Assembly (NCBI GenBank): GCA_049280815.1
Contig: JBAPQW010000087.1
Coordinates: forward strand, 2,522 to 66,521
Source of the DNA: Verrucomicrobiia bacterium
Lineage (GTDB): Bacteria > Verrucomicrobiota > Verrucomicrobiia > Limisphaerales > UBA11358
DNA: 64,000 bases
Direction: 5' to 3'
Part shown: positions 1,714 through 23,664 of the stretch, one piece after another
How the letters are laid out: the number at the start of each line of letters is the position of its first letter
Position numbering within the stretch: the first letter of the stretch is position 1
Made by a program: the position numbers and the translations under genes
Notes under the pieces: generated by a model
Databases searched by the model: none
What the model saw: the letters and a program-made list of their open reading frames with translations, nothing else
What the model was told of the DNA's origin: nothing

Positions 1714-3684
1714 TCAATTCAACGCGGCCGCTTCCACCTCGGTCACCTGGGGAATGTCCGTGACCTTGAGCACGCCCAGGTAATCTGGGCCTTCCATCTG
1801 CGATTGGGGCAGGTCTTCGAGATCCAGTTTGCGCACGCCCGTTTCGAACAGCGCGGCGTAAAGCGCGTTGACGCCCATGGAACCTTCGGCATGGAGTTTG
1901 ATTTTCGCCGCTCCCAGCCCGGGCAAGGCGGAAAGCACCTGCACCGCGCGGCGGATGTCCCACACCCGCATTCCGTCCAGGGTCTGGCCAAGCAGCATGA
2001 AACGGCGCCGGATCTTCGTCAGACGATCGTCCCCGCCCGACCACGCCGTGAGCCCAACGCCGCGCGGGGCCAAAAACCCAAGGGCCACGCGCTGGTCCAG
2101 CAATTCGCGTTGCCAGGCCTCAAACACGGCTGAATGGCTCGCCAACACGTCTCCACTGGCAAGTTCCTCCGTCAGCGCACCGCCGAATTCCGTGTTCATC
2201 GTGGCCAGCCAGTTGGTCCAACCAGTGGGATCAAGCACGCTGATTTCAACCTGCTCCGCCGGTTTCACCGCCGCGCTTTCGAGGAGGTAGAGCCGCAGGG
2301 AAACGTCGTGCTGGCTGGTGAAATCCCACGCGCTGAAACGGAGGCCGGCCCGCTCGACCGCAAAGGCGCGTATCGGTTCCAGCGGCGCCCCCTCGTCCGG
2401 CCAGCCCGCAAAGACTTTTTCCCGCAGCGCGGCGCGGAGTTCGGCGGCGGACTTCTTTTCCGGTTTGGCCAGCGGCACAAAGGTGTCCGCAATGTTGGTG
2501 TTGATCGAGTTGGTCGGCAGGGTATCAAACACCCTGAGTGATTCGGGCGGAAAGAACTTTTTGGCGGCGGTCTCCACGGGCCTTTCCGCACCCTTGAGCT
2601 GGCGGTTGAACCAGCGCAGGGTGGCTAGTTGCAATTCCGGGGTTTCGCTGTGCAGTCCGGGCGCCACCGCGAGGCCGAGTTGGTTGGAGGCGCCGTAAAG
2701 CCCATAAATACGCCGGACCTGCTCATAAATGCGCAGCGTGCTGGACAGCGGAAAAAGAGGGTCCTGGTCGGTGCCGCCAATCAGGAGCGGCCGCGGCGCC
2801 GCCAGGGCGGCGACCTGGGGAAAATCCCAGCGGTAGATGTTGATGAAGAAATTGCAATCACAGTGGCCGTCGATGACGCCGTCGAGCAGGTGGCTTTGCA
2901 CATCGGCCATGCCGGCCAGCGGCGCGGCCGCCTTGATGCGGTCGTCAAGGGCAGTGATGGTCCAGCTGTATGCGCCGCCGCCGGAATGTCCGGTGATGCC
3001 GAACCGGTTGGTGTCCACCTCCGGCCGCGTGCAGAGATAATCCAGCGCGCGAATGCCGAACCACGCCTCGACCCCTCCCGGCGTGTAACCGCGCGAGTTC
3101 CACCACCACAGGCCGTGGTTGCGCGTGCCGGTATGGATGCCCTCAATTTCGCCCGCCAGTAGCGTGTCCAACACCAGGCAGACGTAACCATTGCGGGCGT
3201 ACCACGCACCGTCGGACTGGTAAATCGCCTTGTTACCCAGACTCATGCCATTCGTCACAGCCCGGACGTGGCCGCATTCGTAAAGAATGGCCGGCGCGCG
3301 ATTGGTCAGGTTTTTGGGCAGGTACAAACTGGCCGTGCAGTAAAGGTCCGGAGACGCCTGAAAATAAATTTTCTCGACCGTGAAGCCGTCATTCGTAAGA
3401 CGCCCGGTGACCACCGGTTGGAGATCCGTCAGTTCCGGCATCGGCCACAACCCGAGCATCTCCTGCAATTGCCGGCGGTATTCGCCGCGCTTGGCCTTCC
3501 ATTCGTCCAGCGTGCGGATGTCCGCCAAACAACGCTGCGACAGCGCGGCTGTTTCGAAGCGAAAATAATCGGCGAGCCTGGCATCCCCGGGCGTGGGTTT
3601 GCCGGCGAGCCTGGGAATCTGTGCCTCGCCGGACAGAAATGTCCCCAATAGCAACGTCATCAGCAGAAGGGTCGCGCGCTGCAT
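1714..3684 (-). CDS. Secreted alpha/beta-hydrolase (acetyl-xylan-esterase / dienelactone-hydrolase-like)
   Basis: Long ORF. The likely start is M13 (MQRATLLLMTLLLGTFLSGEAQ), which gives a signal peptide. Nucleophile elbow GHSGGG (GxSxG). The N-terminal region resembles AXE1-type esterases. The family call is from motif recognition only. Confidence 0.75.
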   Translation of the reverse strand: MQRATLLLMTLLLGTFLSGEAQIPRLAGKPTPGDARLADYFRFETAALSQRCLADIRTLDEWKAKRGEYRRQLQEMLGLWPMPELTDLQPVVTGRLTNDGFTVEKIYFQASPDLYCTASLYLPKNLTNRAPAILYECGHVRAVTNGMSLGNKAIYQSDGAWYARNGYVCLVLDTLLAGEIEGIHTGTRNHGLWWWNSRGYTPGGVEAWFGIRALDYLCTRPEVDTNRFGITGHSGGGAYSWTITALDDRIKAAAPLAGMADVQSHLLDGVIDGHCDCNFFINIYRWDFPQVAALAAPRPLLIGGTDQDPLFPLSSTLRIYEQVRRIYGLYGASNQLGLAVAPGLHSETPELQLATLRWFNRQLKGAERPVETAAKKFFPPESLRVFDTLPTNSINTNIADTFVPLAKPEKKSAAELRAALREKVFAGWPDEGAPLEPIRAFAVERAGLRFSAWDFTSQHDVSLRLYLLESAAVKPAEQVEISVLDPTGWTNWLATMNTEFGGALTEELASGDVLASHSAVFEAWQRELLDQRVALGFLAPRGVGLTAWSGGDDRLTKIRRRFMLLGQTLDGMRVWDIRRAVQVLSALPGLGAAKIKLHAEGSMGVNALYAALFETGVRKLDLEDLPQSQMEGPDYLGVLKVTDIPQVTEVEAAALN

Positions 3685-6209: not shown

Positions 6210-8060
6210 TCACGCGGGCGGGGTCGTCTCGCTTTGCAAGACCACGTAGAAGGTGCAGCCCTGGCCAGGTGGGCTTCTCACTCCGATGCGGCCGCCATGG
6301 GACACGGTGATTTCCCGGGCGATGGACAGCCCCAGCCCGGCACCGGTCTTGGTCTGGCCGGGCACCCGGAAAAAGCGGTCAAAAATCCGGGTATGATATT
6401 CCGCCGGAATGCCCGGACCCTGGTCAGTGACCCGGAATTCGATCCCATGGTCCGCGACCGGCGTGGCGCTCAGAACAATTCGGCCATTGAGGGACGAATA
6501 CTTGACGGCATTGGAGATGAGGTTGGTGAAAACATGGTTGATGCGCTGCCGGTCCACGGAAACGGCGGGCAGATCCGGCCGCACCTTGAAATCCACCTGG
6601 AGATTCTTGGTTGAAATCTTATCGGCCAGTTCCTTCGCCGCCCCGGCCAGCAATTCGGACGGAGAAACGGGTTCGCGGCGCAATTCGGCATTGCCTTCCT
6701 CCAACCGGGCGAGGTCGAGCAGGTCGTTCAAAATTCGCAACAGCCGTTCGGTGTCGCTCCGGGCCGCCGAGAGCAGTTCGGCCTGTTTGGGGGTGAGCGT
6801 CCCGACGGTTTTTTCGAGCAGGATATGCAGACCCATCCGGACACTGGTCAGGGGGCTCTTCAATTCGTGGCTGACCGTCGCGACGAGGTTGGTCTTGGTG
6901 GCATCCAGCAGGCGGAAGCGGGTGACGTCATACAAAACCACCGCCACCCCCAGCAGGGCGTCCTCCTTGCTCCGCATGGCCAGGATGCGCGGCAGGAAAA
7001 ACTTGTCCTCGCCGCGAATGCGATAGGTGATCGCTTCCTTGAAACTGTGGGGGAGGAAATTTTCCCCGCTGGCGAGGGTGTTCCGGGCGATGGCCTGCAA
7101 CCGGTCGGGCAACTGGACCTCCAATTGCAGGCTGGACATCAGACCATCCGCCGCCGGGTTCTTCAATTCGATGCGTCCCTCCTGGTCCAGGACGAAAATG
7201 GGGTCCGGAAACGATGCGAGCGTCGTTTCCATCGTGCGATGCAGGCGGACGATTTTTTCCGTGGTGCTCTGGCGATATTCCTGGAGTTGGGCCGCCATTT
7301 TGTTGAAGGCCAGGGCCAGTTCCCCCAGCTCGTCCCGGGTGGTGACCGGCACGGGCTGGTCGAGTTTGCCTTCGCCCAATTCCCGGGTCGCCCGGGTCAG
7401 CAGTTGAATCGGCTGCAGGATCGAGCGGCTGAGCTGATAACCGGCATAGGCGGAAATCAACAGCGCGACGACCGTGCCGAAAATCATGAGCCGCGTCATC
7501 TCCCGCGTGATGGTCCGGATGTTCTGGCTGGTGGCCAGGATGGCCTTGTGGTTCAGGTCATGGACCTTCTCCAGCAGCAGGTTGATCATCTGTCCGTTGG
7601 CGACCAGATCCCGTTCATAAACCAGCCGCTGGTTTTCCGGGGAATCCAGGGTGCTGATGGTGTCGACCGCCTTCAGGAAAGCCTGGTAATTGGTCGCCAC
7701 CTGCTGGCTCAGGTCCGTTTCACCGGGCAGCGTGCTGGCGTTGAGCAGCAAATCCAGGTTTTCATCGAAGCGCCGCTTGTTTTGATTGAAGGCTTTTTGG
7801 TCAATTTTGCGCTTGGGGTATACCAGCAGGTTGTTTTTATCGCCGGCACCCGATCCGGCCACCACCCAGGACACCTCCCGATCCATTCCCGCCAGGGCCA
7901 GACTCATCGCCGAGGCCGCCGTAAAACTCTGGTAATTGTTCGTCACCGTGGCGTCGACGGTGTTGGCCAGGCGCTCAAAGAGCACGATGGCATAAGCGCC
8001 CCCCGCCAGCAGAATGACGACGAATGGCGTCAGGTAAAGAAACAACCGGGTGCGTAACAT
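6210..8060 (-). CDS. Sensor histidine kinase (TM-sensor, HAMP, PAS-like, HisKA, HATPase_c)
   Basis: N-terminal TM helix. HAMP segment LGELALAFNKMAAQL. H-box VATVSHELKSPLTSV. G-boxes TDQGPGIP and GAGLGLSIAREI. It lies 14 nt downstream of an NtrC-type regulator on the same strand. Confidence 0.9.
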   Translation of the reverse strand: MLRTRLFLYLTPFVVILLAGGAYAIVLFERLANTVDATVTNNYQSFTAASAMSLALAGMDREVSWVVAGSGAGDKNNLLVYPKRKIDQKAFNQNKRRFDENLDLLLNASTLPGETDLSQQVATNYQAFLKAVDTISTLDSPENQRLVYERDLVANGQMINLLLEKVHDLNHKAILATSQNIRTITREMTRLMIFGTVVALLISAYAGYQLSRSILQPIQLLTRATRELGEGKLDQPVPVTTRDELGELALAFNKMAAQLQEYRQSTTEKIVRLHRTMETTLASFPDPIFVLDQEGRIELKNPAADGLMSSLQLEVQLPDRLQAIARNTLASGENFLPHSFKEAITYRIRGEDKFFLPRILAMRSKEDALLGVAVVLYDVTRFRLLDATKTNLVATVSHELKSPLTSVRMGLHILLEKTVGTLTPKQAELLSAARSDTERLLRILNDLLDLARLEEGNAELRREPVSPSELLAGAAKELADKISTKNLQVDFKVRPDLPAVSVDRQRINHVFTNLISNAVKYSSLNGRIVLSATPVADHGIEFRVTDQGPGIPAEYHTRIFDRFFRVPGQTKTGAGLGLSIAREITVSHGGRIGVRSPPGQGCTFYVVLQSETTPPA

Positions 8061-8074
8061 GACGTTCGGAAACG

Positions 8075-9439
8075 TTATTTGCCCGGGGCTTCCGGTTCAC
8101 CGGACATTTCCTTCTTCTTGCGATGCAACGTGTCGCGGGTGATGCCCAAAATCCGCGCCGCTTCACTCATCGTGGACGCCTGTTTCATCACCCGGGCGAT
8201 ATGTTCGGTTTCAATTTCCTTCAACGACACCCGGGCGCCAATTTGGACTCCCGGTGTCGGCGTCAGGGGCGAACCCTCGGACAGCTTGTCCGGCAGATCG
8301 AGCCGGCTGATTTCACCGGTATCGGTCAAAATGACGGTCCGTTCGATGACATTCCGCAATTCGCGCAGGTTGCCCGGCCAGGCATATTGCTGGAGGAGCG
8401 CCCCCGCCTCCCGGGAAAAACCGTTGAGCTGTTTGCCGCATTGTTTGGAGAAAAATTGCAGGTAATTTTCCGCGATTTTCAGCAGGTCGCCGGGACGTTC
8501 CCGCAAGGGCGGAATTTGCACGGCAATCACGTGGAGCCGGTAATATAAATCCTCCCGGAAACGCCCCTCCTGAACGGCCTTTTCGAGTTTTCGGTTCGTG
8601 GCGGAAATCACCCGCACATGGGCATGGCGCGCCCGGGCTTCGCCAACGCGTTCGTATTCCTTCTCCTGCAGGAGGCGCAGCAGCTTGGGCTGGATCTCCA
8701 GCGGCAACTCCCCGATTTCATCCAGAAACAGCGTGCCGCCATTCGCCAGCGCGACCTTGCCCAGCTTGTCGCTCACCGCGCCGGTGAAGGCGCCCTTGAC
8801 ATGACCGAACAACTCGCTCTCCAGCAGCTCCCGCGACAGGCTCGGACAACTGACCGTCACAAAGGCGTTTTCCTTTTGCGGACTTTTTTCGTGCAGCGCA
8901 CGCGCCACCACCGATTTCCCGGTGCCGCTTTCCCCCAGCAGCAGGATGGTGGCCGGGGTCGCCGCGGCCTTGAACGCCAGGTCCAGCGCCTTCTGCATCG
9001 CCGGCTCGGACGTGGTCAGGTCAATCGTCAGGGCTTCGGTCGAAAGCCGGGATTCCAGTTCCGCCACGCGGCCCCGGAGCTTGCGGGCCTGGATCAGCCG
9101 GCCCAGCGCCTGCCGGATTTGTTCGGGAGTGAATGGTTTGGGAATGTAATCCACCGCGCCTCGCCGCATCGCCTCCACCGCCGTTTCAATCGAGGCGTAG
9201 GCGGTGAACACGATGATCTCCAACTGCGGATGAATCTCCAGCAGCTTGGGCAACAGATCCAGCCCGCTATCCCCGCCCAGTTTCAAGTCCAGAAACGCGA
9301 CGTCGAATGCCCCGCCTTCCGCCTGCTTCAACGCGGCGGCGGCATTTTCCACGCACACCGTTTCGTGCCCGATCGCCTCCAGCACGACCACCGTGGCCCG
9401 GCGGATGTTTTCCTCATCATCAATAATCAGTATGCGCAT
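8075..9439 (-). CDS. Sigma-54-dependent response regulator (NtrC/AtoC family)
   Basis: REC domain (MRILIIDDEE...FLDLKLGG). AAA+ Walker A GESGTGKS. GAFTGA sigma-54 contact motif. C-terminal Fis-type HTH (AARILGITRDTLHRK). Start taken at ATG 9439 (MRILII). Confidence 0.92.
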   Translation of the reverse strand: MRILIIDDEENIRRATVVVLEAIGHETVCVENAAAALKQAEGGAFDVAFLDLKLGGDSGLDLLPKLLEIHPQLEIIVFTAYASIETAVEAMRRGAVDYIPKPFTPEQIRQALGRLIQARKLRGRVAELESRLSTEALTIDLTTSEPAMQKALDLAFKAAATPATILLLGESGTGKSVVARALHEKSPQKENAFVTVSCPSLSRELLESELFGHVKGAFTGAVSDKLGKVALANGGTLFLDEIGELPLEIQPKLLRLLQEKEYERVGEARARHAHVRVISATNRKLEKAVQEGRFREDLYYRLHVIAVQIPPLRERPGDLLKIAENYLQFFSKQCGKQLNGFSREAGALLQQYAWPGNLRELRNVIERTVILTDTGEISRLDLPDKLSEGSPLTPTPGVQIGARVSLKEIETEHIARVMKQASTMSEAARILGITRDTLHRKKKEMSGEPEAPGK

Positions 9440-20288: not shown

Positions 20289-20731
20289 GAACCAAAAAAT
20301 TCTAAAACGGGTGCCAGCGGTTTGCAATGGCGGAACGCAAATGAAAGGCTGGTCATGGCGCCCCGCCTTTTGGTAAACGCCACCTAACGCTGCATTGCGA
20401 GTTGCCCATGGCCCACGACGCCATAACCATCGATTACCCCAAAAATCACGAGCCCGCCATTCCCCTGCTGGCAACTCCTTTGTATCAAAAGTGGAGACCG
20501 GTCCATGACCGGGCGCAAACGCCCCTTGCTGACGTAGTCAGATCCTATGCACAAAGGGTCAAAAAACTCGATCATGCAAAGGGAGTTGCATCGTTGATAT
20601 TAATGCAATTCTGCAAATGTCCAAATAATGGACACAGCCGTGAGACAAAGCTTCTTGACTTATGGCCGGAATAATTGCAAAACAGTGGAAAATCCAGAAC
20701 GATGGGTGAAGAAATTGGGAGTTAGGAGTTT

Positions 20732-20917
20732 ATGAGTCGAATAACTGGTCAGGTTTGTAATGTTTCCGGAGTATACCGTGCGGTTGGTAACTGTGGTCAT
20801 TCCGTTGAGCGGGCTATTCCCGAAGGACAAGTGTTTCCACCCTGTGAATATTGCCGGGAACGGGGTGATCGCAAAGACATCACCTGGGTCTTGGTGGTGG
20901 AAACTCAAGCCATGTAG
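20732..20917 (+). CDS. Small Cys-rich (zinc-ribbon-like) protein
   Basis: 61 aa with C-x12-C...C-x2-C (CNVSGVYRAVGNCGH...FPPCEYC). GGAG-type RBS (gggagttaggagtttATG). Low-GC surroundings. Confidence 0.45.
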   Translation: MSRITGQVCNVSGVYRAVGNCGHSVERAIPEGQVFPPCEYCRERGDRKDITWVLVVETQAM

Positions 20918-21186
20918 TCGCCCACCCAGATTTCCGACCAACCCGCCCAGGGCGTTGGCCGGTCTTCAACAAAGCGCCGCTGACGTTCGGCCATCTTCAC
21001 CAATCGGGTTGCGTTCATGGCCAGGCAGAGAGTCTGAAATCGTTGTCCTGTTTTGAGTCGCTGCCGGAACATTTGCCATTCAACTCCGAGAGCGAAGGCC
21101 ACTTCTGAGCTGACTCCATTTAACGAACTTCCGTCCGTATTAAACGGTTCAACCAAGTCAAAATCACCTTCGTCCATTTCCTTCAT
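20905..21186 (-). CDS. Hypothetical protein
   Basis: 93-aa ORF convergent with the zinc-ribbon ORF. Balanced amino-acid composition. No recognisable motif. Confidence 0.35.
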   Translation of the reverse strand: MKEMDEGDFDLVEPFNTDGSSLNGVSSEVAFALGVEWQMFRQRLKTGQRFQTLCLAMNATRLVKMAERQRRFVEDRPTPWAGWSEIWVGDYMA

Positions 21187-21397
21187 TCGCCCGGCTAAAA
21201 AGCAAGAACCGTGCTAAGGCTGGCTGGAACGGTCTTTTATTAGGTGACTTTTCAAATCATGCCCATTATGGGATATTGCCTGATTTTAACCTGGTGCGCG
21301 CAAGGCCGCTCCAAATCGGGGACTACTCACACAACGCGGTAATTTCCTGATCCGAGCAGGTGGAAAGCGGAGCCATGCTCAGTGCTCTGGCAAATTA

Positions 21398-21422
21398 GGG
21401 GGATTATATACTTGACTCACCA
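21398..21422. repeat. Left terminal inverted repeat of the IS1595-type element
   Basis: GGGGGATTATATACTTGACTCACCA, the reverse complement of 23492-23516 with one mismatch. Confidence 0.8.
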
Positions 21423-21446
21423 TAGGCTTTATGCGATATTTGGGGC

Positions 21447-22415
21447 ATGAAGAACGACAACGAGTTTCCCGAGACGCTGGCAAGCGCGATTAAATACTTC
21501 TCTGACGCCGACAAGGCGTTGCAGTTCATGGTTTCGATTCGCTGGCCTGACGGCAATGTGGTTTGCCCTTGCTGCCAGAAGTCCAACGTCGCCTTCCTTG
21601 AGACGCGCAAAATTTGGAAGTGCCGGGACACCAAGAAACAATTCTCCGTCAAGGTCGGCACCATTTTCGAGGACAGTCCCCTTGGTCTGGACAAATGGCT
21701 TCCCGCTTTCTGGATGATTGTAAACGCCAAAAATGGAATCAGTTCGTGTGAACTTGGCCGCGCCTTGGGTGTCACCCAAAAGACCGCATGGTTCATGCTT
21801 CACCGTATCCGGCTGGCGATGCAGAACGGCAGCATGGACAAACTTTCCGGCGAAGTGGAAGCGGACGAAACCTATATCGGCGGCAAGGCTCGCAGCATGA
21901 ACAATGCACAGCGCAGCAAGCGCGGTCGCGGAACTGGCGGTACTGGCAAAGAAATTGTCATGGGACTTTTGCAGCGGGGCGGAAAAATCAAATTGAAGCA
22001 CGTTGCAAAAGCTCGTCGCAATATCCTTCAAGCCGAAATTCGCCAGCAAGTTGAAACTGGCTCGCAGGTGTTCACCGATGCGCTTCCCTCGTACAATGGT
22101 TTGAGTCAGGATTACGTCCATGCAGCGATTGACCACGCGAAGGAATATGTTCGCGGCAATGTCCACACCAACGGGCTTGAAAACTTCTGGAGCCTGCTCA
22201 AGCGCGGGATTCGCGGGACATATATCAGCGTTGAACCTTTTCATTTGTTTCGTTACCTCGACGAACAGGCTTTCCGTTTCAACGAGCGCGAGAACACTGA
22301 TTCCGGCAGATTCCTGAAAGGCATCATCGGCATCATCGGTCGTAGGCTCCAGTACGCCAAACTCATTGGCGAACAAAGCAGATTTGCGACGTCAGGGGCG
22401 TGGCAAGCGGCGTAA
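21447..22415 (+). CDS. IS1595-family DDE transposase
   Basis: N-terminal transposase zinc-ribbon (RWPDGNVVCPCC...WKC). HTH (SSCELGRALGVTQKTAWFMLHRIR). DDE region strings EADETYIGG, VFTDALPSYNGL and HTNGLENFWSLLKRG. Confidence 0.92.
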   Translation: MKNDNEFPETLASAIKYFSDADKALQFMVSIRWPDGNVVCPCCQKSNVAFLETRKIWKCRDTKKQFSVKVGTIFEDSPLGLDKWLPAFWMIVNAKNGISSCELGRALGVTQKTAWFMLHRIRLAMQNGSMDKLSGEVEADETYIGGKARSMNNAQRSKRGRGTGGTGKEIVMGLLQRGGKIKLKHVAKARRNILQAEIRQQVETGSQVFTDALPSYNGLSQDYVHAAIDHAKEYVRGNVHTNGLENFWSLLKRGIRGTYISVEPFHLFRYLDEQAFRFNERENTDSGRFLKGIIGIIGRRLQYAKLIGEQSRFATSGAWQAA

Positions 22416-22416
22416 A

Positions 22417-22566
22417 TCATAGGCTGCGGCGCTTTGCTTTTCTGGCCTTTTGGTATTGTTGTTCCCGCCGATCAATTTCGGCTTTCGGGACTGATACTAT
22501 TTCCTTCGTGAATTGATGGAATTTTTCAAATGGAGTTGCTCTTTCTGGACTCGACTCTTTTTTCAT
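22417..22566 (-). CDS. Small basic protein (49 aa), passenger ORF inside the IS
   Basis: MKKESSPERATPFEKFHQFTKEIVSVPKAEIDRREQQYQKARKAKRRSL. It starts 13 nt after the stop of the upstream Rx4H-protein ORF, and its stop abuts the transposase stop. The upstream part of the 120-aa ORF-track frame overlaps the preceding gene and is discounted. Confidence 0.4.
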   Translation of the reverse strand: MKKESSPERATPFEKFHQFTKEIVSVPKAEIDRREQQYQKARKAKRRSL

Positions 22567-22579
22567 CGTATGGTGATTT

Positions 22580-23428
22580 CTAAGGTTTCTTGGCGACTTG
22601 GGCCAGAGCAGCAGATAAACCGGGCTGTGCGGGTTGTGAGGGATTGGCCTGTGACATAGCCAACACCATTTGGACAATTGCACTGCAAGCAGCACCCAGC
22701 AAAACCACAGCATCATCGGATGAAAGCATTTCCTCTGGGTGAAGAATTGGATTGCGATATTCTTCTCGAATATGTTCAAGAAATGCGGTTATTTTTTTAT
22801 CAGCACCCGCCGTGTTCAGATTTAAGATATAGCTACCCCAGTTCCGCAGCTTGGCCTTCGGCGGGTGGCCGATGACAAACGTATAGTAAGCACGGATTAC
22901 CGATTCTGTGCCCCTAAGGATGTGAAATGCGGCCGCAGTCGGAATATCAAAGGCGATGCATTTCCCAGCTTGTCGGATGTCAGCAATACATTGCCTCGGG
23001 AGGGCCTTCCGAACCATTTCCGGGAAAAGATTTTCCGGGCGCTCAATTAAGTCTGTTGTCGAGTAAATCAATTTTTGAGACACAAAATAACTTGCGAGGG
23101 TCTGAAGTTCGGCGGAAAACACCGTCTCAAATTCAGTTAGGCTATTCGTAATATTATAAGCCTCCAAAAAGCTTATGGTTTTATTGAAATCTAACTCTTT
23201 CCCTTCGGACGGTTCTGTAACTGCATTTATGGCATTGAGAAGTTTCCAGGCGGTGGGCCTGCAAACAATCATTGGAATTAACCCGTCGTTACAAACTGTC
23301 TCTAGCCAATCTTTGGCCATAAAAAGTTTGTAATACACGTTTTTTAGAACGTCCTTTTCTTGAACGCTCTGGAGCGGATGAAGCACCGTCCCCAAACTGT
23401 AAAATTGATAAAGATTTACTGTTTTCAT
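22580..23428 (-). CDS. HEPN-like (Rx4H motif) protein, passenger gene inside the IS
   Basis: Start taken at ATG 23428 (MKTVNLYQF...), because the ORF-track start at 23518 lies beyond the right terminal inverted repeat (IRR). The C-terminal helical region contains EHIREEYRNPILHPEE, that is R-N-x3-H, the HEPN RNase signature also seen in Abi_2/AbiD-F-type proteins. GC is low (23 G+C in the 60 nt at 23101-23160). Confidence 0.6.
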   Translation of the reverse strand: MKTVNLYQFYSLGTVLHPLQSVQEKDVLKNVYYKLFMAKDWLETVCNDGLIPMIVCRPTAWKLLNAINAVTEPSEGKELDFNKTISFLEAYNITNSLTEFETVFSAELQTLASYFVSQKLIYSTTDLIERPENLFPEMVRKALPRQCIADIRQAGKCIAFDIPTAAAFHILRGTESVIRAYYTFVIGHPPKAKLRNWGSYILNLNTAGADKKITAFLEHIREEYRNPILHPEEMLSSDDAVVLLGAACSAIVQMVLAMSQANPSQPAQPGLSAALAQVAKKP

Positions 23429-23491
23429 ATCCGTTTCCCCCACACTGACAAATAATGCCTTGGGGGGAATACATGGATAATCCACCGCCCT

Positions 23492-23516
23492 TGGTGAGTC
23501 AAGTGTATAATCCCCC
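23492..23516. repeat. Right terminal inverted repeat of the IS1595-type element
   Basis: TGGTGAGTCAAGTGTATAATCCCCC. Confidence 0.8.
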
Positions 23517-23588
23517 AAATTAGGGCACTACCCGCCACGCGGCGAACTTGACGGATGCGCGCAATCGACATAGCCTGTTTACCCGGCT

Positions 23589-23664
23589 GGTGGTCGTAGC
23601 TCAACGGTAGAGTCCAAGCTTGTGGAGCTTGTTGTTGCGGGTTCGAATCCCGTCGGCCACCCCA
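23589..23664 (+). tRNA. tRNA-His (anticodon GTG) with encoded G-1 and CCA
   Basis: Manual fold. G-1 is present. Acceptor GTGGTCG pairs with CGGCCAC. D-arm GCTC-AACGGTA-GAGT. Anticodon stem CAAGC/GCTTG with loop TTGTGGA (GTG). Variable loop TTGTT. T-arm GCGGG-TTCGAAT-CCCGT. Discriminator C, then CCA. Confidence 0.93.

Follow-up and report, generated by a model that had tools for sequence, protein, structure and literature searches.

Transporter insertion sequences (tISs) are a defined category of mobile elements in which a structure like that of an insertion sequence (IS) holds passenger genes; according to the TnCentral preprint, only the IS1595 and IS66 families contain them. Two IS1595 tISs, tISCpe8 of Clostridium perfringens and MTnSag1 of Streptococcus agalactiae, have been studied experimentally, and a circular intermediate, and possibly also replicative excision, was proposed for such elements (PMC5704250). 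The concept of a transporter IS in the IS1595 family is already known and is not new here. The element described in this study lies at positions 21399-23515 of a 64-kb stretch of DNA from a Verrucomicrobiia bacterium (contig JBAPQW010000087.1; the whole stretch is referred to as the window), and it is very likely a tIS of the IS1595 family that is intact and probably still mobile, with a HEPN-type cargo gene in a slot. In common with tISCpe8 and MTnSag1, it has a single IS1595-type DDE transposase, inverted repeats (IRs) of ~25 bp, a target site duplication (TSD) and passengers within the IRs (PMC5704250). The passengers of those two elements, which come from Firmicutes, are lincomycin resistance and mobilisation functions, whereas the present element carries a HEPN-fold gene. 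It also differs from them by an extra conserved small backbone gene and by a slot with varied toxin-antitoxin, restriction-modification and defence cargo, and its clade is found in soil and peat, with genome loci from Acidobacteriota and Verrucomicrobiota, among others. What appears to be new is a clade of tISs in which a second gene is conserved and the content of the slot turns over rapidly; the window contains one intact member of this clade, with an unannotated HEPN cargo.

The left IR (IRL, GGGGGATTATATACTTGACTCACCA, 21398-21422) and the right IR (IRR, 23492-23516, reverse complement GGGGGATTATACACTTGACTCACCA) are identical at 24 of 25 positions, in agreement with the single difference reported by the initial annotation, and a repeat finder returned a 35-nt inverted pair of imperfect arms with 89% identity at 21393-21427 and 23487-23521. 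When the IR 25-mer was searched with up to three mismatches, two sites were found in the window, namely IRL and IRR themselves, and none in 100 shuffles. A second IR near 22420-22560, which would have marked the end of a shorter IS, was found neither there nor elsewhere in 21423-23491, using either the 25-mer at up to three mismatches or the 12-nt core ACTTGACTCACC at up to two. The bases AAATTA, previously taken as the TSD, are present at both ends, but the direct repeat continues into a G/C run, so that the duplication is an exact 8-bp CAAATTAG (21391-21398 and 23516-23523) and the ends shift by 1 nt. The resulting element is 2117 bp long with ends GGGGATTATA, and is bounded by IRL GGGGATTATATACTTGACTCACCA at 21399-21422 on the forward strand, with a core ATATACTTGAC common to the IRs of relatives, and by IRR at 23492-23515 on the reverse strand, with one mismatch to IRL.

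The TSD was called by scanning symmetric boundary offsets and taking the best symmetric solution, for which the chance of an exact 8-bp TSD is ~2e-4 per element by our own arithmetic (12 offsets x 4^-8). The same scan gave exact 8-bp TSDs in 12 of 17 IR-bounded transposase-plus-cargo relatives, which had been chosen by cargo, and likewise in 19 of the 34 that had IRs among the elements chosen for a similar transposase. Taken together, 32 TSDs (window, L010-L070, L088-L164) have an A+T content of 68% and a weak, palindromic consensus of the form C-(A/T)6-G, with C at position 1 in ~50% and G at position 8 in ~55% of the duplications, suggesting a target preference of this IS clade; CAAATTAG conforms to this consensus. 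Because an exact 8-bp TSD surrounds the unit, the whole 2117 bp was inserted as one piece. The earlier proposal of a transporter IS that moves its cargo as one unit is supported by this TSD around 2.1 kb, together with the same layout in relatives.

The transposase gene (21447-22415, forward strand) encodes 322 amino acids and is apparently intact, and its position and IS1595-type assignment in the initial annotation were confirmed by the list of open reading frames (ORFs), Pfam and NCBIfam. The protein matches the full Pfam model DDE_Tnp_IS1595 (PF12762, positions 1-153 of 153, 2.5e-41), the N-terminal zinc ribbon Zn_ribbon_IS1595 (PF12760, 1.5e-10) and NCBIfam NF033547 (2.8e-55, 187.5 bits, cut-off 75). 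Every position conserved at 95% or more among 81 homologues is retained, including C40, C43, C59, D140, D211, N242, E245 and K252, and the last five residues represent the IS1595 catalytic pattern D, D, (N)...E with a basic residue seven positions after E. A consensus scan alone predicted a transposase promoter at 21412-21440 on the forward strand, comprising TTGACT (-35, within IRL), a 17-nt spacer and TG-GATATT as an extended -10 just ahead of the transposase ATG. The transposase domains, catalytic residues, terminal IRs and 8-bp TSD all fit the IS1595 family, to which the element belongs; a TSD of 8 bp is the norm of this family in ISfinder. In its ends and size the element resembles the ISNwi1 subgroup, which is characterized by GGnnATTAT ends (compare GGGGATTATA), an 8-bp TSD and a transposase of ~320 amino acids, and to which it may belong. 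Passenger-carrying variants of ISNwi1, measuring ~1.7-4.7 kb, are said to have been described by Siguier et al. in 2009 and in ISfinder.

Siblings of the element were collected by a metagenome scan with the transposase, which yielded 80 loci with 56-86% identity, 34 of them with recognisable IR pairs. All of the 34 IR-bounded siblings measure 1841-4449 bp, and no cargo-less copy of ~1.2 kb was found among the 80 relatives, including by a motif-based search for a nearby right IR. The size of the element, which had been regarded as exceptional at double that usual for the family, is therefore the rule in this clade (34/34 relatives of 1.8-4.4 kb, none without cargo). Comparison with the closest siblings by blastn (L086-L097, 66-84% transposase identity) aligned 21391-22546 and 23492-23525, which hold IRL, the transposase gene, a small ORF and IRR, and nothing in 22547-23491. 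A common chassis and a cargo slot (22547-23491) were defined because the sibling alignment stops across the latter, where no DNA homology to the closest siblings was detected. The slot has the lowest GC content of the region, 43-50% compared with 58-64% in the host flanks, suggesting a foreign origin of the slot and its cargo.

According to Pfam and PADLOC, the slot of the siblings contains a RelA_SpoT protein (PADLOC PDC-S33, 5e-115), a Panacea antitoxin with an SDH protease, an HTH-Peptidase_M78 protein (RmrA, 1e-21) with DUF4411, MazF, PIN, a RES/Xre toxin-antitoxin pair (in a locus found via the small protein), methylase-Mrr, a methylase with MTaX1-HNH, a D12 methylase with PD-Lambda-5_A (1e-108), DUF3800 proteins and DUF7689. 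One further cargo family has an RNxxxH motif, and the HEPN-like family of the window is present in nine of the 80 transposase-selected loci (3/34 of the IR-bounded ones). As in a tIS, the slot genes differ among siblings and the cargo family of the window also occurs solo. In a purely descriptive sense, based on 34 elements, the slot is enriched in defence and toxin-antitoxin genes, and such a slot in IS1595 relatives appears undescribed. Nothing specific on HEPN with IS1595, or on IS1595 with defence or toxin-antitoxin cargo, was found in the open literature. Retained internal copies of the right end, a sign of one-ended capture, were not seen in the siblings.

Defence cargo is known from Tn7-like transposons and toxin-antitoxin modules from the Tn3 family, and this clade resembles them in combining a conserved transposition module with a variable region rich in defence or toxin-antitoxin genes. 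However, those are large multi-gene elements, whereas the clade consists of 2-4-kb single-transposase ISs with typically one to three cargo genes. The clade picture indicates that such a small IS can spread anti-phage and toxin-antitoxin genes, not only large transposons, plasmids and phage satellites, and a gene lying between the right IR and either the transposase or the small ORF is a strong candidate for a new defence or toxin system that consists of a single gene. It is conceivable, and we propose it tentatively, that the IS lineage is an obligately cargo-bearing vehicle of minimal size by which single defence or toxin genes are shuttled in soil bacteria, with a ~1.2-kb chassis and a slot whose turnover is faster than that of the chassis. 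If this holds, the small protein would be an unrecognised IS-encoded factor, perhaps a regulator, a partner of the IS ends or a cargo-handling protein, and the slot could be mined systematically for new defence genes such as those of the HEPN family, of the DUF3800 group and of several families so far unannotated.

Further observations were made on the siblings. DUF3800 cargo of ~270-320 amino acids was found in L086, L088, L090, L104, L122, L165 and L167, always convergent with the transposase; it is the most frequent single cargo beside the RNxxxH families and has no PADLOC match. Because they recur in a slot that otherwise holds defence and toxin-antitoxin genes, the DUF3800 proteins are candidates for an unrecognised defence or toxin function. 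The contigs of L093, L095, L098, L108, L120, L125 and L161 are 1.2-1.4 kb long and stop no more than a few dozen bases after the transposase or small ORF, where the cargo slot begins, which looks like a break in the assembly graph caused by several copies in one sample that share a chassis and differ in cargo; as evidence for such copies this is indirect. Near-identical elements of ~1960-1980 bp with HEPN-like cargo and the IR core ATACTTGACTCAG are present in L134, L147 and L151, and their contigs come from the sequential accessions Ga0307372, Ga0307373 and Ga0307374, which are probably related samples; these may be copies of one element or come from one strain, or else reflect an element that is abundant and was recently active.

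The backbone consists of two 24-bp IRs, a zinc-ribbon/DDE transposase and a conserved basic protein of ~50 amino acids, with the slot between the small gene and the right IR. In the mechanism best supported here, the transposase would recognise both IRs, move everything between them as one unit and duplicate 8 bp of an AT-rich C-(A/T)6-G target; in the present case the insertion landed 66 bp upstream of a tRNA-His gene. By giving the host a defence benefit, by stabilising the element, or by both, the cargo would help the IS to be retained and to spread.

The cargo gene (22580-23428, reverse strand) is read inward from the right end and is followed 13 bp downstream by the small gene, both convergent with the transposase gene. 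Its product has 282 amino acids from the ATG, and motifs, AlphaFold2 and Foldseek indicate an N-terminal helical domain and a C-terminal HEPN-fold domain. The protein contains FHxxRxxE at residues 168-175 and RNxxxHP at 225-231, the latter including RNPILH (Rx4H, 225-230), and F168, H169, R172, E175, R225, N226, H230 and P231 are invariant across 43 aligned homologues of 26-67% identity. The RNxxxHP motif corresponds to the HEPN Rx4-6H signature with a polar residue after R. AlphaFold2 predicted an all-helical full-length protein (pLDDT 91.7) and, for residues 120-265 alone, a model of similar quality (pLDDT 91.8). The full-length model gave no significant Foldseek match in PDB or the viral BFVD, with a HEPN hint among the weak PDB matches, and the six best PDB matches of the domain-only model were all HEPN proteins (2hsb, 1ufb, 4nqf chains A and B, sacsin 3o10 and 2q00; probability 0.89-1.00, TM score 0.47-0.63), with HepT toxins further down. 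Sub-threshold Pfam matches in the 43 relatives were to DUF4145 (12), Cas_Csm6_HEPN (6), HEPN (3) and Hypoth_Ymh (1). From the motif, the domain model and these sub-threshold matches among relatives, we conclude that the cargo has a HEPN fold, as the initial annotation had guessed.

HEPN RNases are among the enzymes with which bacteria mount suicidal defence against phages. DUF4145 is a recognised HEPN family (PMC3710099). The window protein itself had no match to DUF4145 (PF13643), and the best match among its relatives was 2.2e-4 (E up to 1); judged by sequence, the cargo is related to DUF4145 without being a member by the curated cut-off. There are 160 cargo homologues in a large protein collection, none of them annotated, which makes this an unannotated HEPN family of at least 160 members. 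The protein also matches phrog_32483, a group of unknown function, at 8e-29. A PDB sequence-profile search with the cargo family gave nothing meaningful, and neither the plasmids of PLSDB nor the phages of INPHARED contained a tblastn match to the cargo. The PC3 cargo is a remote relative of the family (hhalign 96.6%) that keeps the motif, while for the PC1 family and the L164 protein, both RNxxxH cargo, no relationship to it was detectable by hhalign.

The closest structural matches to the C-terminal domain, HepT toxins, AF_0298, TT1696 and TM0613, share the Rx4-6H motif with it. Unlike HepT, the cargo has no adjacent MNT or recurring partner, is twice as long and has an added N-terminal domain; no MNT nucleotidyltransferase ORF is located beside it in the element, and no neighbour other than a transposase recurs in 80 loci. 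RAZR is a single-protein abortive-infection RNase composed of an N-terminal domain and DUF4145, and its catalytic R and H are essential (PMC13017515). Like RAZR (PD-T7-4), the cargo is a single chain in which a non-catalytic N-terminal domain precedes a divergent HEPN domain. It differs in having no PADLOC match to PD-T7-4 or any other defence model, and its N-terminal domain is helical and lacks Cys clusters, while that of RAZR is a zinc finger. By analogy, we infer that the cargo may be an RNase that acts on its own once conditionally activated, in the manner of an abortive-infection protein or a toxin. This view is favoured because it has no recurring partner and resembles single-protein HEPN defences, and because validated or candidate defence systems and toxin-antitoxin modules are carried by the siblings.

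It is less likely, though worth weighing, that the cargo serves as a selfish stabilisation or addiction gene, or as a weapon against competing mobile elements, and not as an anti-phage defence benefiting the host. HEPN domains are common toxins in intragenomic conflict (PMC3710099), and siblings carry addiction-type modules such as MazF, PIN, RES/Xre and Panacea-linked toxins. However, a single-gene HEPN protein without a recurring partner lacks the labile antitoxin needed for classical addiction, and the siblings also carry the anti-phage systems PD-Lambda-5, PDC-S33 and RmrA. The selfish and defence roles are not mutually exclusive.

The small gene (22417-22566, reverse strand) encodes a basic protein of 49 amino acids with the pattern TPFEKF...SVPKAEIDRRE and a basic tail, and it is supported as a gene by homologues and codon pattern, its differences by codon position (0.54/0.42/0.68) being of the coding type. 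By iterative protein search of six-frame ORFs it was found in 70 loci, of which 60 are among the 80 selected by transposase and 10 are loci from genomes that are linked to an IS. Its homologues lie inside the IRs wherever IRs were identified, with any cargo type and on either strand, and in other elements often on the transposase strand directly after the transposase gene. It was beside none of the 41 solo homologues of the HEPN cargo. In the blastn comparison the small ORF belongs to the block of DNA shared with the siblings, outside the cargo slot. The initial annotation had assigned 1.1 kb of cargo to an Rx4H protein and a 49-aa basic protein. Both ORFs are indeed inside the IRs and the 282-aa protein is cargo, but the 49-aa protein is the product of a conserved backbone gene and not cargo, because it accompanies the transposase whatever the cargo and lies in the sibling-conserved DNA block.

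The protein collection contains 63 independently called homologues of the small protein (41-68 amino acids), all named 'hypothetical' and without Pfam domains, and none of the genes called in that collection proved to be an exact copy of the small ORF. TPFEK and VPKxEIDRRE are invariant among the sampled homologues, whose word-based retrieval is biased toward such conservation. No significant family was found for the small ORF in Pfam, NCBIfam or PADLOC (a match to DUF7416 reached only 0.095), and a PDB sequence-profile search with the small-protein family gave nothing meaningful. Starting from the small protein, an IS1595 transposase adjoins it in three of four distinct long-contig loci, with DUF3800, a 302-aa ORF or other genes as cargo. 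In the fourth (L168, 2230-3641), the small ORF follows an Xre-like antitoxin/RES toxin pair without a nearby transposase; this is probably a decayed element retaining cargo and small gene, or else the small gene is separable from the transposase. The small backbone protein appears undescribed, and both the 49-aa gene and the element boundaries are easily overlooked in annotation. IS1595 elements are described as having one ORF, and a second conserved gene raises a testable question on IS1595 regulation or cargo acquisition.

The arrangement of the two genes also recalls a toxin-antitoxin pair that would act as an addiction module for the IS, in which the small protein would neutralise the HEPN RNase. 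The small ORF directly follows the HEPN gene, in the same orientation and at a distance of 13 bp, the same gene order occurs in nine other HEPN-cargo loci, and HEPN toxins frequently have antitoxin partners (PMC3710099). However, we consider this pairing improbable, as the small ORF was found in 60 of the 80 elements selected by transposase, where it accompanies unrelated cargo such as restriction-modification genes and even complete toxin-antitoxin pairs. It frequently shares the strand of the transposase gene, which it then follows directly, and it lies within the backbone DNA block outside the slot. Moreover, none of the 41 solo cargo homologues has the small ORF, and all 10 matches selected by cargo are IS-linked. 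The role of antitoxin to the HEPN protein was ruled out because the distribution of the small protein follows the transposase and not the cargo.

The occurrence of the cargo family was examined in 84 loci, 80 from a one-genome-per-species scan and four from metagenome contexts. Thirty are IS1595-linked, 23 of them convergent as in the window, five are IS1-like-linked, 41 are solo without convincing IRs and eight are at contig ends. After clustering of neighbouring ORFs, the recurrent neighbours of the cargo were the IS1595 transposase (27 loci) and the IS1-like transposase (four loci) only. Clear IRs enclose both genes in 17 transposase-linked loci, and the IS1595-linked ones share a ...ATTATAnACTTGAC... 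core. IRs were also sought around the solo homologues as signs of non-autonomous elements, and only chance-level repeats or hairpins were found.

Several points weigh against the view of the element as an intact, probably still mobile tIS with HEPN-type cargo, or against its novelty. The cargo gene also exists independently of the IS, as 41/84 homologues are solo and chromosomal, and the identities of cargo and transposase are nearly uncorrelated (Mantel r = 0.13, with 239 of 5000 permutations at least as high), which implies that the cargo moved repeatedly between elements and chromosome and not in one co-inherited lineage; how it is exchanged is unexplained by the model. With co-divergence essentially absent, an ancient, strictly co-inherited pair of cargo and transposase was dropped as an explanation. 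When identical proteins to the transposase and to the product of the gene on the left flank were looked up in order to find a second copy or an empty site, only the same locus was returned, and with one copy in 64 kb and neither a second copy nor an empty site, the element can be called no more than probably mobile at present. For the HEPN assignment, no family passed the thresholds of Pfam, NCBIfam or PADLOC for the cargo protein, and the best Foldseek E-value of the domain model was only 0.049 despite probabilities of 0.97-1.00. As for novelty, nothing on ISNwi1 cargo was found in the open literature, outside of which lie ISfinder and the founding IS1595 paper, where such elements may already be described.

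The link to IS1595- or IS1-type transposases in 35/84 loci, across several phyla and usually in a convergent layout inside IRs, would also be expected if the HEPN-like protein were a dedicated transposition accessory, acting for example in RNA processing or transposase regulation, and not a passenger. This is very improbable, because the gene is present in only nine of 80 elements with related transposases, the others having moved with intact 8-bp TSDs while carrying unrelated genes, and because of the 41 solo homologues and the lack of co-divergence with the transposase. Finally, a chimera, in which a ~1.2-kb IS ends near 22570 (IRL, transposase gene and small ORF together come close to the size of cargo-less members) while another, incomplete copy contributes the distal IR and so brackets a chromosomal gene by accident, is effectively refuted, as no IR-like sequence lies in 21423-23491 even with 2-3 mismatches, the 8-bp TSD flanks the whole 2117 bp, dozens of loci have the same architecture and TSDs, and the GC content of the cargo region is below that of the host.

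Some homologues of the cargo occur in other settings. Those in tandem with IS1-like transposases are located in L008 (4981-6864), L011 (2118-4336), L033 (5806-9334), L069 (5902-7941) and L083 (464-2693). These transposases have DEIW...TSxxERxNLTxR motifs, with a faint match to Pfam DDE_Tnp_IS1 and a weak one to IS240, and the IS1-like family is said to be related to IS1595. In L033, perfect 18-bp IRs surround a 3991-bp unit, for which no 8-bp TSD was found. The Chthoniobacterales contig L010 contains two transposases of the clade (2436-3317 and 7346-8338) that are 56-57% identical to that of the window and ~5 kb apart. Only one of them is joined to HEPN-like cargo, and in that element the small ORF (6863-6994) is on the transposase strand. 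A cargo homologue with 53% identity was found in L085 (3998-5825), in tandem behind an IS1595-type transposase. Its surroundings, which include an AAA_25 ATPase, a ClpP-like protease and numerous small ORFs, may be those of a phage or a plasmid, in keeping with the match to phrog_32483.

With regard to the surroundings of the element, a tRNA-His gene (GTG) lies at 23590-23664, 66 bp to the right of the right TSD copy, and an Rfam scan of the element returned this neighbouring tRNA only. The insertion may be in or near the promoter region of the tRNA-His gene. The 1 kb to the left of the IS (~20400-21400) has a GC content of 47-53%, compared with 58-64% in the host, and contains only small unannotated ORFs, so that an older islet beside the tRNA gene may have been the site into which the IS inserted.

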